A DNA stretch of 64,000 nucleotides, from sequence record PQ416618.1, one strand, 5' to 3'. A model generated the notes under the pieces. It was not told the origin of the DNA. It searched no databases and saw nothing but the letters and a program-made list of their open reading frames with translations. The DNA comes from Escherichia phage vB_VIPECOMC06. The translations under genes and the position numbers were made by a program. This document shows, in pieces, positions 4,388 through 64,000 of the stretch (its first letter is position 1; each line of letters begins with the position of its first letter).

Positions 4388-4401
4388 GGGACTTCGGTCC
4401 C
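4388..4401 (+). terminator. CUUCGG-tetraloop hairpin (gggacTTCGgtccc) after regA; RNA stabiliser or weak terminator
   Basis: Perfect 5-bp GC stem with UUCG loop 7 nt after the regA stop; weak U tail. Confidence 0.5.
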
Positions 4402-36868: not shown

Positions 36869-36890
36869 GGGGACTTCGGTCCCCTTTTTT
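36869..36890 (+). terminator. Rho-independent terminator after rIIB (ggggacTTCGgtcccc plus T6)
   Basis: 6-bp GC stem with UUCG loop, then TTTTTT. Confidence 0.85.
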
Positions 36891-44292: not shown

Positions 44293-44844
44293 TTACTTAA
44301 AGATATTTATAATCGCTTTGACAATAGATTTGTTTTCAAGGTCAGGGAATTTGGGGAATTCACCGCCAAGATGTTCATGTTTTTCTAAAAGGGCAAAGAA
44401 TTTTTTGAGCTCTTTAAATTTTCGTTTTTCTTCTCTATTAGCAACCTCTGCGTCAATAAGAGAACTTAAAACACTGAATAATTTATAGAGTTCATGAATT
44501 TTCTTATCACGTTGAACTACGCGTTTATATGCTTCATCTTCCTTCCACCCGTCGTCGGTCCAAATGTCAAATTCGCCAGGTTCTTCTGTAGTAACATTTT
44601 GAAGAGCCCCTGGAGTGTCAATAACAATTTTTTGCTTATCATAAGTCCATACTGTTTTTCCGCGATGGTCTTCAACATAAACCCATTCTTGCTCGCGTTC
44701 GTCAAATATAACAGCATAGCCTTCTTTATGGTCTAAAGGTTTTTTTGGTGTCGAATGAGCCGGAAATCCTACGCCTTTTAATGGTTTATAATTTTCTTCT
44801 TTGTAAAATTCTTTAGTGTCAAAATAATAGTGATAGAGTTTCAT
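44293..44844 (-). CDS. 38: gp38 tail-fibre assembly chaperone (T4 type)
   Basis: 183 aa; MKLYHYYFDTKEFYKEENYKP... T4-type gp38. Confidence 0.85.
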   Translation of the reverse strand: MKLYHYYFDTKEFYKEENYKPLKGVGFPAHSTPKKPLDHKEGYAVIFDEREQEWVYVEDHRGKTVWTYDKQKIVIDTPGALQNVTTEEPGEFDIWTDDGWKEDEAYKRVVQRDKKIHELYKLFSVLSSLIDAEVANREEKRKFKELKKFFALLEKHEHLGGEFPKFPDLENKSIVKAIINIFK

Positions 44845-44853
44845 ATTATAAAA

Positions 44854-44867
44854 GGGACCGAAGTCCC
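44854..44867 (-). promoter_or_regulatory. Hairpin (gggacuUCGGuccc on the - strand) between the SD and AUG of gene 38: structured, split ribosome-binding site
   Basis: GGAG (revcomp of 44870-44873) lies about 25 nt from the gene 38 AUG with the 14-nt hairpin in between. Confidence 0.55.
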
Positions 44868-44873
44868 TTCTCC

Positions 44874-47800
44874 TTATGCTAAACGAACGATATAGTTAAA
44901 AGCAACGTTTTTAACTGTGTTTTCTGTATTTCCTGTGGCATTTACAGTTATTGTATGTCCATGGGAACCAATTGCAACAGTATGAGAATGAGCACCAATA
45001 CCTACCGTATGGGTATGAGCACCAATACCAACAGTGTGGGCATGGTTACCCGTAGCGCTAGTAGTACCAGACCAACTATGGGTGTGGGCACCGTCTGAAG
45101 AAGTTTTGGCCATATTCGACGATGCAGTAGCACCGCTCACGGATCCAGTGATTTTAGCGTTACCGTTTGGACCAGCACTATTGTATCCATCATAGAATAT
45201 GCTAGCGGGTACGCCGCCTTGTATCTGAGGGCCTGAACGCGCGTGTTGGTGAGCACCGGCGGAACTAGTATTACCACTCACTGTATGGTTATGGTTGCCA
45301 GTGGTATTACTGGTCTTAGTACCATAATCAAAGCTTGAAGTCGTTTTGCTACCGTAATCAAAACTAGAAGTGGTCTTAGTACCCAAATCTGTGTTTGATG
45401 CACTTGCACTATGGCTATGTGACTTAACACCGTCTGCTTCTGTACTTAATACAGCACGCCCAGATGGTTTACCCTTGATAGTTTGACCACGCATATCAGG
45501 CAGAGAACCGGAAGGATACACAGCGGCTAACTTAGGATACAAGCCAGCATCAAATGTTTGACCTTCCATTATGGCATAACCTTCAGGAGGTGTATCAGTA
45601 GGCCAAGGAATCGGAGCACCAATTGGATAACTTGAGACAATATCCGTCTTAAGGTTATTTATTGTGGTATTCAAGTTAGCAAAGTTACCAGAACCACCAG
45701 TAATATTACCATCAGTTCCTAGTTGGGCATTTCCGACTTTAAAGGGTTTAGTGATTGACACGAAATTATCACTTATAACAAGACCGTGTCCATACGATTG
45801 GCTATAAAGTGATAAATCATTTCCAGAACCACCAAGACCAACATACCAAGATCTAGTTCCAGCTTTAGAACCCTGCAAATAATTAGCAGAAGAAGATGAA
45901 GGAGAATCTAGAGTAAGCGCTGCATTACGTTCATTAATAGTTACTGGACATATCATTTTAATAGTTTTAAGACTATTACTTACTTGTAATAATCCTGTAC
46001 CAGATCCAGAATCTCCTAAATGAACATCGTGCGACATTTTAACTGTGCCAGTGTTCAGTTCTATTGTCAATGGTCTAAGATTACTTATACCGCCTGATTC
46101 TCCAGCATCTTTAGGAGTCGGGATAATATATAATGATGCTTCTGAACGACGGAAAATTGCCCCGTATTCAGCATTCCAAATTCTTAATGCATCAGCTGTT
46201 CCGCCGATTTTAACTTGACCAGTAATAGAAGAACCACCAGTTAAATTAAGCCCATTATTCATGGTCACAGCACCTTCATGTGTACTCAATCCTCCCACAT
46301 AAAGGTTGCCAGTGGCGGTCAATGTTCCTTTTGCATTTAAAGAACCTGAAACTTGCATTAATACAGGGCCTATAGTTTCGTCACCTGTAGGCGCACCACG
46401 TTGAGAATAAAAATGGTATCCTTGTCCGTCACTAACTTCAAATACAGTTTCACGATATTTATCACCAGTGGTGTTAAATGCATTACCCCATGCTTTAACA
46501 GTTACATAACTCTTATTCTGACCTGCTCGAGTACCACCTTCCCACATGATTTGCTTAGTGCCATCAATACCTGAAGCTGCTTTAAAAACTAGAGAAGCAT
46601 TAGTTCCATCACCATTAAAATATAATCCATTATTAAGTTTTAATGTTTGAACAGAAGCGATGGTACCATCAGCACGTAAATTTAATGAATTTGAACCAGT
46701 TTTAAGATCTAAAATTCCTGGTTCAACAAGAAGTCCATCGCCCATGCTAACAGACATACGACCCGTGCCGCGGAAATAGTGATACATTTTAGAATTACTG
46801 CTATAACCAATATGAGTCTGCCCATCGCCGTTATTATTACCATCAACATCGGTGCGTGCGGTAAACATTGCTTGGTTGTTATTTGGAAAATCCCAAGTAG
46901 AACCGGAATCTCGACTATAACCAACCGTCAATTTTTTAGTACTATTAATACCATTATTCAAAATGGTAGCGGTTGAAATACTGTTAGCCATTAAGTCAAT
47001 AACGCCATCACGGACCCATTTAATACCAGTATCGTTATCGCCAATTGCAATACCAATGGAAATGGCAGACTCTAAAGGATAACGCCCATTTGTACCATTA
47101 TCAGGAAGACCTACTGAAATAGATTTACCTGCGGTAATACGCCCGGAAGTATCAAACGCCCATTGGAAATATTGAGCACCAGTCCCTGTCCACCAAGAAA
47201 TTTCGTGTGGTTTACCTGAACGAGCATCAGCAATTTCATGGAAAATAGCAGAAGAAACATGTCCGCGGAATTTACGAAGGTAGTTTATACCATTAGTATC
47301 CAAATCCGTTTCGGTTGGAGTATAGCGCCAAGTCGGTAATGAAACTAAATCATATGCAGTATCAATATTAGTGTCCCAAGATTTAGTGCTCACATTGATA
47401 TTTTTGGTAATAACTTTAGGACCAATTAAAGAACCAGCTTTAGTTTCAATATTACTTTGAGTAACTAAATATCCATTAGCTACTAATAAATTTCCGGAAT
47501 CAACTTGAAAATTACCATTACGGTTAAAGGTCCAATATTTCGAAGTGCCTGTTTCATCAATATAATGCATCTTCATTGAGCCTTCATTAACTAAGGTCCC
47601 TAATGAGAAAGTACCATCTTTATAACGTTGCTTAATTAACGGGTTATATTCTGAAGTAGCGGTTGATGCGGAAATATCCATGAAAATAGGGGCTTTTGCC
47701 GTGTGTTGACCAGCCCAAGAACCAACTCCGGTGGCCTTATAAGCAAATTCGATATATCCACCAGATGCAACATTTTGTGAGCCTATTAAATTAAATGTAC

Positions 47801-48014
47801 CTGTCTGAGTATAGTTACCTACATGAGTTACATTACCGTTAATATCCCCGCCTTTAGCAAAACCCAGATCAATGATATTTCCTAAATCATCTTTAGTAAA
47901 AATTGTTCTATCTTTTAAGTTTATAGCCAATTCACCTTCGGCTAATACTGAAGCAGCAGGGCGTGCACCTGCGGTTTTGCTTCTTTTAAATTGTATTTGT
48001 TTTAAAGTAGCCAT
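44874..48014 (-). CDS. 37: Long tail fibre distal subunit gp37
   Basis: 1046 aa; N-terminus [43 protein letters not shown]; C-terminal HxH repeats and ...[17 protein letters not shown] end as in T4 gp37. Confidence 0.95.
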
Positions 48015-48712: not shown

Positions 48713-48720
48713 TATTTATA
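48713..48720 (-). promoter_or_regulatory. T4 late promoter TATAAATA (- strand) for gene 36
   Basis: Plus-strand tatttata, about 25 nt upstream of the gene 36 ATG. Confidence 0.7.
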
Positions 48721-48745
48721 CAAAAATGGGAGACCGAAGTCTCCC
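48721..48745 (-). terminator. UUCG-loop hairpin plus U tail after gene 35 (- strand)
   Basis: gggagacCGAAgtctccc (plus-strand representation) directly after the gp35 stop, followed on the - strand by auuuuug. Confidence 0.6.
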
Positions 48746-62627: not shown

Positions 62628-63806
62628 ATGAGTACAGTTTTTAACACACAACAAGTCGATGTTTTGAATGAGCCGATGTTCTTTGGTTCTGGTCTTGGTA
62701 TTGCGCGTTATGATATTCAACGCCATAAAGTTTTTGAAGATTTGACCGAAAAACAATTGTCATTTTTCTGGCGCCCCGAAGAGGTAAACTTGATGTTGGA
62801 CTCTGCGCAGTTCAATAAGCTTCCTCAGTTCCAACAGGACATCTTTACAAACAACCTTAAGTATCAATCATTATTAGATTCTATCCAAGGCAGAGCCCCA
62901 TCTGCGGTACTTATGGCACTGATTTCTGACCCTTCATTAGATACATGGGTTGCAACATGGACATTCAGTGAAACTATTCACTCTCGTTCGTATACTCATA
63001 TTATGCGAAATCTTTATACAGACCCATCTAAGGTATTTGATGAAATTGTATTAGACGAAGCAATCATGAAACGAGCTGAATCAATAGGTAAATATTACGA
63101 TGATGTTCTAGTTAAAACACGTGAATGGGAAAATGCTAAAGAAATTTTTAAATGTTTTTCCGAAAATGAATATGATTTGGATGCATATTCAAATAGTCTT
63201 ATGCATGTGGAAGAATGTAAACGTGCATTAATGAAGTCTCTTTATCTCTGCTTACACGTTATTAACGCCTTAGAAGCTATTCGTTTTTATGTATCTTTTG
63301 CATGTACTTTCAACTTCCATAAGAACATGGAAATCATGGAAGGTAATGCAAAGATTATGAAGTTCATCGCTCGTGACGAACAACTCCACCTTAAAGGCAC
63401 TCAGTACATTATCCGTCAACTTCAATCTGGTACTGATGGTGATGAGTGGGTTCAAATTGCTAAAGAATGTGAACAAGACGCAGTTGACATTTTTATGGAA
63501 GTAAATAGACAAGAGAAGGAATGGGCTGCACACCTCTTTAAAGACGGTACATGCCCGGGTATCAATACGCAGAGTATGTGTGCTTTTGTTGATTACTTGA
63601 CTGTGTCTCGTATGAAACAGTGCGGTTTGCCATGCCCAATAACTGATGCTCCGACCAAGCATCCGTATCCTTGGATTCGTGAATATCTGAACTCTGATTT
63701 AGTTCAATCAGCTCCTCAGGAAGTTGAAATCAGTTCTTATCTTGTCGCACAAATTGATAATGATGTAGACCAAAATGTAATCAATTCATACAAAAAATAT
63801 TTCTAA
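62628..63806 (+). CDS. nrdB: Ribonucleotide reductase small subunit NrdB, uninterrupted
   Basis: 392 aa from ATG 62628 (MSTVFNTQQ...; track start 62616 is an upstream GTG); di-iron/tyrosyl radical protein; continuous ORF. Confidence 0.9.
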   Translation: MSTVFNTQQVDVLNEPMFFGSGLGIARYDIQRHKVFEDLTEKQLSFFWRPEEVNLMLDSAQFNKLPQFQQDIFTNNLKYQSLLDSIQGRAPSAVLMALISDPSLDTWVATWTFSETIHSRSYTHIMRNLYTDPSKVFDEIVLDEAIMKRAESIGKYYDDVLVKTREWENAKEIFKCFSENEYDLDAYSNSLMHVEECKRALMKSLYLCLHVINALEAIRFYVSFACTFNFHKNMEIMEGNAKIMKFIARDEQLHLKGTQYIIRQLQSGTDGDEWVQIAKECEQDAVDIFMEVNRQEKEWAAHLFKDGTCPGINTQSMCAFVDYLTVSRMKQCGLPCPITDAPTKHPYPWIREYLNSDLVQSAPQEVEISSYLVAQIDNDVDQNVINSYKKYF

Positions 63807-63810
63807 GGAC

Positions 63811-63824
63811 GGGACTTCGGTCCC
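63811..63824 (+). terminator. CUUCGG-tetraloop hairpin after nrdB (gggacTTCGgtccc)
   Basis: 5-bp GC stem with UUCG loop 4 nt after the nrdB stop; weak U tail. Confidence 0.5.
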
Positions 63825-63832
63825 ACTTTATT

Positions 63833-64000
63833 ATGAAAGATATTGCCGCCGAATATTCCTTTATTAAATATACAGAATTGGAGCTATTAGAAGATGCAAC
63901 AATTAAAACAGTTGATGTCCCTAATAAGAAAAATGTCATATACGCTATTGCTATAGATGACGAACTTGTGTATATTGGTAAAACCAAGAATTTAAAGAAA
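63833..64000 (+). CDS. denA: Endonuclease II (DenA, GIY-YIG family), N-terminal part; 3' end beyond the window
   Basis: ATG 63833; MKDIAAEYSFIKYTELE...VIYAIAIDDELVYIGKTKNLKK (GIY-YIG-like); follows nrdB as in T4. Confidence 0.6.
   Translation, partial: MKDIAAEYSFIKYTELELLEDATIKTVDVPNKKNVIYAIAIDDELVYIGKTKNLKK

Follow-up and report, generated by a model that had tools for sequence, protein, structure and literature searches.

A probable counterpart of the split ribosome-binding site of T4 gene 38 in a Mosigvirus-like phage

The DNA analysed here, a stretch of 64,000 nucleotides from Escherichia phage vB_VIPECOMC06 (PQ416618.1; hereafter the window), belongs to a Mosigvirus-like relative of T4. 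On its minus strand, between the genes for the distal subunit of the long tail fibre and for a T4-type tail-fibre chaperone, lies what is probably the region in which translation of gene 38 is initiated, a split ribosome-binding site (RBS) as in T4, whose function is assigned by orthology and whose hairpin would be a gene-end element that the RBS has accommodated. The split RBS of gene 38 is real, but it is already known from T4 and is not new.

The gene 37/38 junction and its predicted fold

The features of the region are as follows.

44874 to 48014, minus strand: gene 37, long tail fibre distal subunit, 1046 amino acids (open reading frame list)
44870 to 44876, minus strand: Shine-Dalgarno (SD) element UAAGGAG, core GGAG at 44873-44870 (direct reading)
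44850 to 44871, minus strand: largest predicted helix, 9 bp (AGAAGGGAC/GUCCCUUUU; minimum free energy structure and pairing probabilities)
44854 to 44867, minus strand: core hairpin GGGAC-UUCG-GUCCC with a C(UUCG)G tetraloop (folding; RNAalifold gives the same helix)
44845 to 44853, minus strand: spacer UUUUAUAAU from the core hairpin to the AUG, without a purine-rich SD
44293 to 44844, minus strand: gene 38, T4-type tail-fibre assembly chaperone, 183 amino acids, AUG at 44844-44842 (open reading frame list)

The gene 37 product, annotated gp37 in the matching phage records, contains the Pfam domains gp37_trimer, Collar and Phage_fiber in its C-terminal 350 residues and ends with IVRLA, followed by UAA at 44876-44874. 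The gene 38 product affiliates to the Pfam family Caudo_TAP with a score above the family cut-off. It is 66.5% identical to T4 gp38 (tblastn) and 68% identical to gp38 of the T4-clade phage PhiZZ30, and its N-terminus MK(L/I)YHYYFDTKEFYKEENYKP is conserved.

Read on the minus strand, the junction consists of the gene 37 stop UAA (44876-44874), GGAG (44873-44870), the dinucleotide AA, the hairpin GGGAC-UUCG-GUCCC (44867-44854), the spacer UUUUAUAAU and the gene 38 AUG (44844). When the sequence was read directly, the positions that a first-pass annotation of this DNA had given for stop, SD, hairpin and AUG were each correct to the base. The GGAG core is separated from the AUG by 25 nt, and the gene 37 stop lies 29 nt from the AUG. 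Since the full match to the anti-SD is the 7-mer UAAGGAG, the SD overlaps the gene 37 stop. The same annotation had considered this the only good SD, and UAAGGAG is indeed the sole anti-SD match within 40 nt of the gene 38 AUG, forming a duplex of -9.3 kcal/mol, the only one below -5.3 kcal/mol over that distance. From -28 to -1 relative to the AUG, the scan gave no duplex stronger than -5 kcal/mol, and none that would be usable between -4 and -20; the weaker matches there fall within the hairpin stem.

The 35-nt segment folds at -13.0 kcal/mol, compared with -6.1 +/- 2.3 kcal/mol for shuffled sequences (z = -3.0; 2 of 200 shuffles were as good). Its minimum free energy helix is longer than the 5 bp first proposed and reaches 9 bp when the last two bases of the SD are paired, these being the bases overlapped by the outer A-U and G·U pairs. 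The most stable structure takes the final A and G of GGAG into the helix (unpaired probabilities of 0.18 and 0.03, respectively), so that the hairpin could partly mask the SD and not only help it. Pairing of the SD with 16S rRNA would open these outer pairs and leave a 7-bp stem. Such a stem, AAGGGAC/GUCCCUU (44852-44869, -10.7 kcal/mol), was predicted when SD and AUG were held single-stranded. Seven bases of the spacer UUUUAUAAU then lie outside the helix, as opposed to 25 nt in the linear sequence, and the proposal that the hairpin brings SD and AUG to a normal effective spacing thus agrees with the constrained fold. A fold of 91 nt also placed a weak AU helix over the gene 38 AUG, with a z of only -2 and AU pairs of low stability. 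An outer helix of 4 bp suggested by RNAalifold, pairing CAUA at the stop with UAUG at the start, was discarded, as none of its pairs covary and 2 of 17 sequences interrupt it. No curated family covers the element: an Rfam scan of 44600-45100 (E <= 1) returned a single chance match to a miRNA on the opposite strand.

Conservation and relation to T4 gene 38

The comparative set comprised 24 sampled T4-type 37/38 junctions, 17 of them distinct. Most stem from GenBank phage records, since few such junctions are found in IMG/VR (2 loci) and in the JGI/ENA metagenomes (4 loci). The order UAAGGAG, hairpin, AUG is kept in 24 of 24 sampled junctions, and an UAAGGAG overlapping the gene 37 stop is invariant among all 17 distinct ones. 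In these, the 5-bp stem is paired in 100% of 84 cells, whereas controls slid along the alignment were at most 74% paired. The fourth stem pair covaries (GC in ten, AU in five, CG in one and GU in one, the G·U being an intermediate), and its covariation score was reached by none of 500 shuffles, although it is a single variable pair within a very conserved region. The loops drift, with UUCG, UUCU, UUAU, UUAG, UUCA and GUUA represented. Among 10 representative variants the linear spacing varies between 22 and 27 nt and the spacing outside the helix between 6 and 10 nt; the intergenic gap of T4-type junctions measures 26-31 nt. The junction is present in 208 phage records, and most of the T4-type gp38 in about the same number (206).

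The first-pass annotation had rightly pointed to a comparable structure at T4 gene 38. In T4, a stable hairpin between SD and AUG reduces a spacing of 22 nt to about 5 nt, and mutations that destabilise the hairpin lower initiation (PMC3014915, PMC7297116). As the sources for a split RBS, bridged by a hairpin, at T4 genes 38 and 25, both papers name Gold 1988 and Nivinskas et al. 1999. The T4 junction UAAGGAGAGGGGCUUCGGCCCUUCUAAAUAUG resolves into UAAGGAG-A-GGGGCUUCGGCCCUU-CUAAAU-AUG, and its 22 nt equal the figure in the review (PMC3014915). As judged by sequence, the junction in the window is the orthologue of that in T4, located upstream of a T4-type gp38. Both share the position between genes 37 and 38, the stop-overlapping UAAGGAG, the C(UUCG)G hairpin 1-2 nt past the SD, the short AU-rich spacer before the AUG and a T4-type Tfa chaperone downstream. 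They differ in the stem: the GGGAC/GUCCC of the window contrasts with GGGGC/GCCC(U) in T4 itself and with the GGGGC/GCCCC that the majority of T4-clade phages have, a single compensated change from G-C to A-U. In addition, an extra A precedes the stem here, the 3' spacer UUUUAUAAU is longer and richer in U than UUCUAAAU of T4, and the linear SD-AUG spacing is 25 nt instead of 22 nt. The host phages are also distinct, being Mosigvirus-like in our case and a Tequatrovirus in that of T4.

Between T4 genes 26 and 25, another split RBS follows the same principle of a distant SD with a stem-loop that restores the spacing (Nivinskas 1999; Malys and Nivinskas 2009). Its SD is reported to lie 27 nt upstream, with a functional spacing of 11 nt and a layout conserved among close T-even phages. 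It differs from the present case in gene, hairpin sequence and spacing, and gene 25 is outside the window.

Recurrence of the hairpin at gene ends

The 14-mer of the core hairpin occurs in the window four times exactly and three times as the compensated variant GAGAC..GUCUC, against an expectation of 0.06. The other copies have the same sense-strand orientation and mostly lie directly past stop codons. The window contains twelve C(UUCG)G hairpins with a stem of at least 4 bp. Each is on the sense strand, and many are followed by U-runs and promoters. They fit the class of intercistronic C(UUCG)G hairpins of T4 (Tuerk et al. 1988, via PMC8948821), which have the same very stable tetraloop, sense-strand orientation, intergenic location and many copies per genome, and are abundant between genes with varied roles. 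A promoter or a conventional SD comes after most copies, whereas at gene 38 and denA the SD lies 5' of the hairpin.

A second type of 37/38 junction places the SD on the other side. In T2-type phages (PhAPEC2, pSs-1, VR20, CIP9 and PST among the examples), which encode an adhesin gp38 unrelated to the T4-type protein, the order is stop, hairpin, SD, 5-8 nt and AUG. As here, a GC-rich hairpin directly follows the gene 37 stop, and the gap measures 30-34 nt, but the SD (GGAGG, AAGGA, GAGGA or GGAG) is found 3' of the hairpin, at the canonical 5-8 nt from the AUG, so that the RBS is contiguous. Since these junctions keep the hairpin with the SD after it, and since the hairpin recurs at gene ends, it probably has a role of its own, around which the RBS was built. 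The first-pass view that the hairpin bridges SD and AUG is upheld by the orthology and by the conservation of the stem; that it exists in order to bridge them is probably half the story, given the T2-type junctions and the recurrence.

The layout of gene 38 is found once more in the window, at the nrdB-denA junction (63804-63835), with an SD overlapping the stop, a hairpin, 8 nt and the AUG. The same arrangement is seen in every resolvable nrdB-denA junction, from several Tevenvirinae lineages (33 IMG/VR loci with 20 distinct sequences, as well as T4, JD18, DK-13 and phiC600P9). Several stem pairs show strong covariation there, one of them occurring as A-U, U-A, G-C and C-G. No published description of a denA hairpin RBS was found in the searchable literature; older print literature may hold one.

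Proposed mechanism, alternatives and significance

Genes 37 and 38 would be carried on one late mRNA, in which the 3' end of the 16S rRNA of a 30S subunit would pair with the UAAGGAG overlapping the gene 37 stop. The 14-18 nt after the SD would fold into the very stable C(UUCG)G hairpin, leaving about 7 single-stranded nt (UUAUAAU) instead of 25 between the SD duplex and the AUG; with only these unpaired, the start codon would enter the P site as it does with an SD at the usual spacing. From the T4 literature we infer that destabilising the hairpin would lower initiation in this phage as well. The hairpin itself may be one copy of the general gene-end hairpin of this genome, which would likely protect mRNA 3' ends or cause partial termination. 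In that case it did not arise for bridging, and it is the gene 38 RBS that would have been fitted around the hairpin.

No late promoter motif TATAAATA was found on the minus strand between 44844 and 48713, and T4 transcribes genes 37 and 38 together (PMC3004832); hence the RNA from which gene 38 is translated must include the hairpin. A reading of UUUUAUAAUAUG as a T4 late promoter was rejected, the sequence not being TATAAATA. Cleavage by RegB at GGAG was likewise considered and set aside, the message here being late.

In a different explanation, the hairpin would serve the gene 37 message as a rho-independent (intrinsic) terminator, an attenuator or a stabiliser of the 3' end: it would limit gene 38 expression, and its position between SD and AUG would be incidental. 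As the main function this is unlikely, even though several observations agree with it. The GC-rich stem is followed by UUUUAUAAU with four consecutive U, the relatives closest to the window share such a U-run (4-6 U in all), and the identical hairpin of phage MM02 (5 U) is annotated as 'putative transcriptional terminator, -11.80', an annotation of the ARNold type. Six other places in the window have the 14-mer or its compensated variant, mostly just past stop codons, and the U-runs and promoters after many of the twelve C(UUCG)G hairpins, the persistence of the 37/38 hairpin in T2-type phages with the SD downstream, and the abundance and varied roles of such hairpins in T4 (PMC8948821) all fit the same explanation. 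However, the U-run is not conserved, the tails being UUCUAAAU or UUCUGAAU in the T4 clade and UGGAGG in T2-type junctions, and a scan with a terminator consensus yielded no match at the site. Any termination at the hairpin must be leaky, since gene 38 lacks a separate late promoter and shares a transcript with gene 37 in T4. Nor does termination account for the translation of gene 38, which has no SD close to its start. A terminator role is hence compatible with the split RBS as a second role of the hairpin, not as a replacement.

Still less probable is translational coupling, in which the overlapping SD would retain ribosomes that have ended at the gene 37 UAA until they re-initiate at the AUG, 29 nt further on, the folding being irrelevant or inhibitory. 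The overlap of stop and SD in all T4-type junctions and in every resolved nrdB-denA junction is in line with coupling, as are the tightly constrained gaps (26-31 nt for 37/38, 26-32 nt for nrdB-denA). Yet 29 nt is long for termination-reinitiation, stop and start not being in the proximity that it calls for, the compensatory conservation of the stem would have no explanation if folding were irrelevant, and destabilising the structure lowers initiation in T4 (PMC3014915). Terminating ribosomes must melt the hairpin, as the gene 37 stop overlaps the SD, and coupling and de novo initiation at gene 38 are not separable by sequence alone. A chance juxtaposition of GGAG, an inverted repeat and ATG might be imagined in a short AT-rich region, GGAG being only a 4-mer, but its probability is negligible. 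An SD followed by a hairpin and, after 3-12 nt, by the ATG of an open reading frame of at least 50 amino acids was expected 0.1 times per window from shuffled sequences and was seen twice, both times at a real gene start. With the conservation in 208 records and the covarying stem, a chance origin is refuted.

For the split RBS that we favour, the wider implication is more tentative. T4-like phages may use such sites repeatedly, beyond genes 38 and 25. The hairpin may also have come first, as a gene-end element for mRNA stability or attenuation, the side taken by the SD being an evolutionary accident that the ribosome tolerates, as is suggested by the opposite SD positions in T4-type and T2-type 37/38 junctions; we regard this reading as possible rather than probable. 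For gene 38 itself little is added, since a textbook peculiarity of T4 is confirmed in a relative. The split layout nonetheless corrects the public records of close relatives: the MM02 record labels the hairpin a terminator, that of Mizar places the RBS inside the hairpin, and that of O157 typing phage 3 starts gene 38 at an ATG created within the mutated loop. It also bears on how much structure a 30S subunit tolerates between the SD and the start codon. The natural series of T4-type junctions (22-27 nt linear, 6-10 nt effective), together with the T2-type and denA junctions, offers a ready collection on which models of RBS strength and designs of insulated intercistronic junctions can be tested.

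Architecture of the gene 37/38 junction

The window originates from a Mosigvirus-like T4 relative, and several Escherichia phages match it at 97% identity over the 37/38 region. On the minus strand the junction reads ...GUU CGU UUA GCA UAA GGAG AA GGGAC UUCG GUCCC UUUUAUAAU AUG AAA CUC... and comprises the following features, the last four read from the sequence:

44874..48014, minus strand: gene 37 ORF, 1046 aa, C-terminal Pfam gp37_trimer, Collar and Phage_fiber
44293..44844, minus strand: gene 38 ORF, 183 aa, Caudo_TAP match
44876-44874, minus strand: gene 37 stop codon UAA
44873-44870, minus strand: GGAG, core of the Shine-Dalgarno sequence (SD)
44867-44854, minus strand: 14-nt hairpin
44844-44842, minus strand: gene 38 AUG

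Gp38 shares 66.5% identity with T4 gp38 (tblastn) and 68% with gp38 of the T4-clade phage PhiZZ30, and the conserved N-terminus fixes the start codon. Re-reading of the minus strand reproduced exactly the positions that the first-pass annotation had assigned to SD, hairpin and AUG. Its designation of GGAG as the only good SD also held: UAAGGAG (-9.3 kcal/mol as a duplex with the 16S 3' end) is the sole strong match within 40 nt of the AUG, and the 16S 3'-end scan found no usable SD at canonical distance.

The 35-nt segment from SD to AUG folds with -13.0 kcal/mol, compared with -6.1 ± 2.3 kcal/mol in dinucleotide shuffles (z = -3.0). With UAAGGAG and AUG kept single-stranded, mimicking the ribosome-bound state, a 7-bp helix AAGGGAC/GUCCCUU (-10.7 kcal/mol) was predicted to begin directly 3' of the SD. 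Outside this helix GGAG and AUG are 7 nt apart, versus 25 nt linearly, in agreement with the earlier proposal that the hairpin would provide a normal effective spacing. In the unconstrained optimum, additional A-U and G·U pairs recruit the final two SD bases; these outer pairs would need opening before SD pairing.

Public annotations of this junction disagree. The record of MM02 (comparison locus L016) annotates the hairpin as a terminator, and that of Mizar (L017) places an RBS (GGT) within it. In E. coli O157 typing phage 3 (L018), the mutated loop (UUAUG) supplies an ATG that is in frame but lies within the hairpin, and the record begins gene 38 at this codon, 18 nt too early.

Conservation of the split arrangement in T4-type phages

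The T4 gene 38 precedent mentioned in the first-pass annotation is documented in PMC3014915 and PMC7297116, and the window site is its orthologue. In the review of Uzan and Miller, which covers T4 genes 38 and 25, the hairpin reduces the SD-AUG spacing of gene 38 from 22 to 5 nt, and destabilising mutations lower initiation (PMC3014915); PMC7297116 names Gold 1988 as the source for gene 38 and terms such sites 'noncontiguous or split'. The T4 junction (UAAGGAG A GGGGC UUCG GCCCU UCUAAAU AUG) has a GGAG-AUG distance of 22 nt, equal to the literature figure and compared with 25 nt in the window phage.

Among 24 T4-type junctions (17 distinct) from Tequatrovirus, Mosigvirus, Gaprivervirus, Dhakavirus and metagenomes, UAAGGAG is invariant and the five stem pairs show standard pairing in 84 of 84 cells of the distinct junctions, whereas slid-register controls reached at most 74%. 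The fourth pair is G-C in ten junctions, A-U in five (window included), C-G in LF82-41 and G·U in Mizar, the last being the expected intermediate. The stem covariation score exceeded all 500 shuffles, and RNAalifold recovered a helix identical to the core stem. Loops vary (UUCG, UUCU, UUAU, UUAG, UUCA, GUUA), hence selection acts on the helix and not on the tetraloop. Ten representative variants have linear spacings of 22-27 nt and outside-helix spacings of 6-10 nt. Since blastn with the 81-nt junction retrieved 208 phage records and most of a T4-type gp38 occurs in 206, the split arrangement appears, from these matches, universal for T4-type gene 38.

The last ~35 nt of gene 37 (window 44877-44910, minus strand) and the first ~40 nt of gene 38 are near-invariant in nucleotide sequence in the junction alignment A1, silent sites included, although the gp38 proteins of these phages share only ~65% identity. 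This may reflect a ribosome-footprint constraint or a recombination junction for tail-fibre module swapping. RNAalifold also proposed an outer 4-bp helix between CAUA (gene 37 stop) and UAUG (gene 38 start), which lacks covariation, is broken in 2 of 17 junctions and is probably not meaningful:

A1 columns 7-10 with 42-45, window ~44875-44878 with 44842-44845, minus strand: rejected outer helix (RNAalifold)

The nrdB-denA junction and recurring hairpins

The whole window was scanned for, in this order, an SD, a hairpin with 5 bp or more, 3-12 nt without SD-like triplet, and an ATG that starts an ORF of 50 codons or longer. Exactly two sites were found, gene 38 and denA; shuffled windows gave a mean of 0.1, and none of 100 reached two. 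The nrdB-denA junction (63804-63835, plus strand; UAA GGA C GGGAC UUCG GUCCC ACUUUAUU AUG, denA start 63833) lies in a region 100% identical to PhAPEC2 and vB_EQ1 and has a split layout identical in kind to that of gene 38. T4 (UAAGGAG UGGGCC GCAA GGCCCA UUUUAUU AUG), JD18, DK-13 and phiC600P9 each carry their own hairpin here. Besides loci L027-L030, 34 IMG/VR loci retrieved via nrdB (L036-L069; 33 resolvable, 20 distinct) were compared. In all 33, a stop-overlapping SD (AAGGA, AAGGAG, AAGGU and similar) is followed by a hairpin, a short spacer of 7-10 nt counted from the core stem, and the AUG; 19 of the 20 distinct junctions have a gap of 26-28 nt. Stems and loops differ between phages, with covariation at several stem positions; counted from the loop, the sixth pair occurs as A-U, U-A, G-C and C-G. 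No published description of this layout at nrdB-denA was found in the searchable literature.

The exact 14-mer GGGACTTCGGTCCC occurs four times in the window (4388-4401, 36870-36883 and 63811-63824, plus strand; 44854-44867, minus strand) and the doubly compensated GAGACTTCGGTCTC (GAGAC..GUCUC) three times (16823 and 57728, plus; 48730, minus), with 0.06 copies expected. All seven lie on the sense strand immediately 3' of a stop codon; their identity may stem from a limited sequence space or from homogenisation among them. All 12 C(UUCG)G hairpins with a stem of at least 4 bp lie on the sense strand, mostly directly 3' of stop codons and often followed by U-runs and promoters, and fit the class that PMC8948821 cites from Tuerk et al. 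1988. Between genes 35 and 36 (48713-48745, minus strand), a C(UUCG)G hairpin of 7 bp and its U-run are followed by the late-promoter motif TATAAATA, UAAGGAG and the gene 36 AUG (48688); unlike the gene 38 layout, this is the conventional succession of terminator, late promoter and contiguous RBS.

Role of the hairpin and alternative readings

Phages from several genera whose gp38 is the unrelated T2-type adhesin (PhAPEC2, pSs-1, VR20, CIP9, PST) also carry a GC-rich hairpin directly 3' of the gene 37 stop:

L031 18760-18795: T2-type junction of PhAPEC2 (further cases L032-L035)

Their canonical SD (GGAGG, AAGGA, GAGGA or GGAG) lies between hairpin and AUG, at 5-8 nt from the start codon, a mirror arrangement of the T4-type junction, in which the SD precedes the hairpin. 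As the hairpin is kept with the SD on either side, we infer from this comparison that it probably has a role of its own, in 3'-end protection or partial termination. The T4-type RBS may then have been accommodated around this hairpin.

That the hairpin is solely a terminator or stabiliser is nevertheless unlikely: this would account for its presence but leaves gene 38 translation unexplained, and fits as an additional function, not as a substitute. The hairpin cannot be an efficient terminator: from the promoter that precedes gene 36 down to the gene 38 AUG, no late promoter motif was found on the minus strand, a common transcript covers genes 37 and 38 in T4 (PMC3004832), and the U-run after the hairpin is not a constant feature of T4-clade junctions. 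A further TATAAATA motif is located inside the gene 38 3' end (44304-44311, minus strand), ~20 nt before the first base of the holin gene t (44283); t therefore has its own late promoter, unlike gene 38. Termination-reinitiation coupling with gene 37 is less probable still; the gene 37 stop does overlap the SD and intergenic gaps are narrow (26-31 nt), but the 29-nt gap is long for coupling, which also leaves the stem covariation unexplained. A chance arrangement is excluded by the conservation and deserves practically no weight.

The observation at the gene 38 start is confirmed, and its interpretation as a split RBS, which given the literature on T4 gene 38 is the established one, is supported. 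Because the window site is orthologous to the classical T4 site, the phenomenon was already known; modest added value comes from the evidence of stem covariation, the opposite placement of the SD in T2-type junctions and the split layout at denA.
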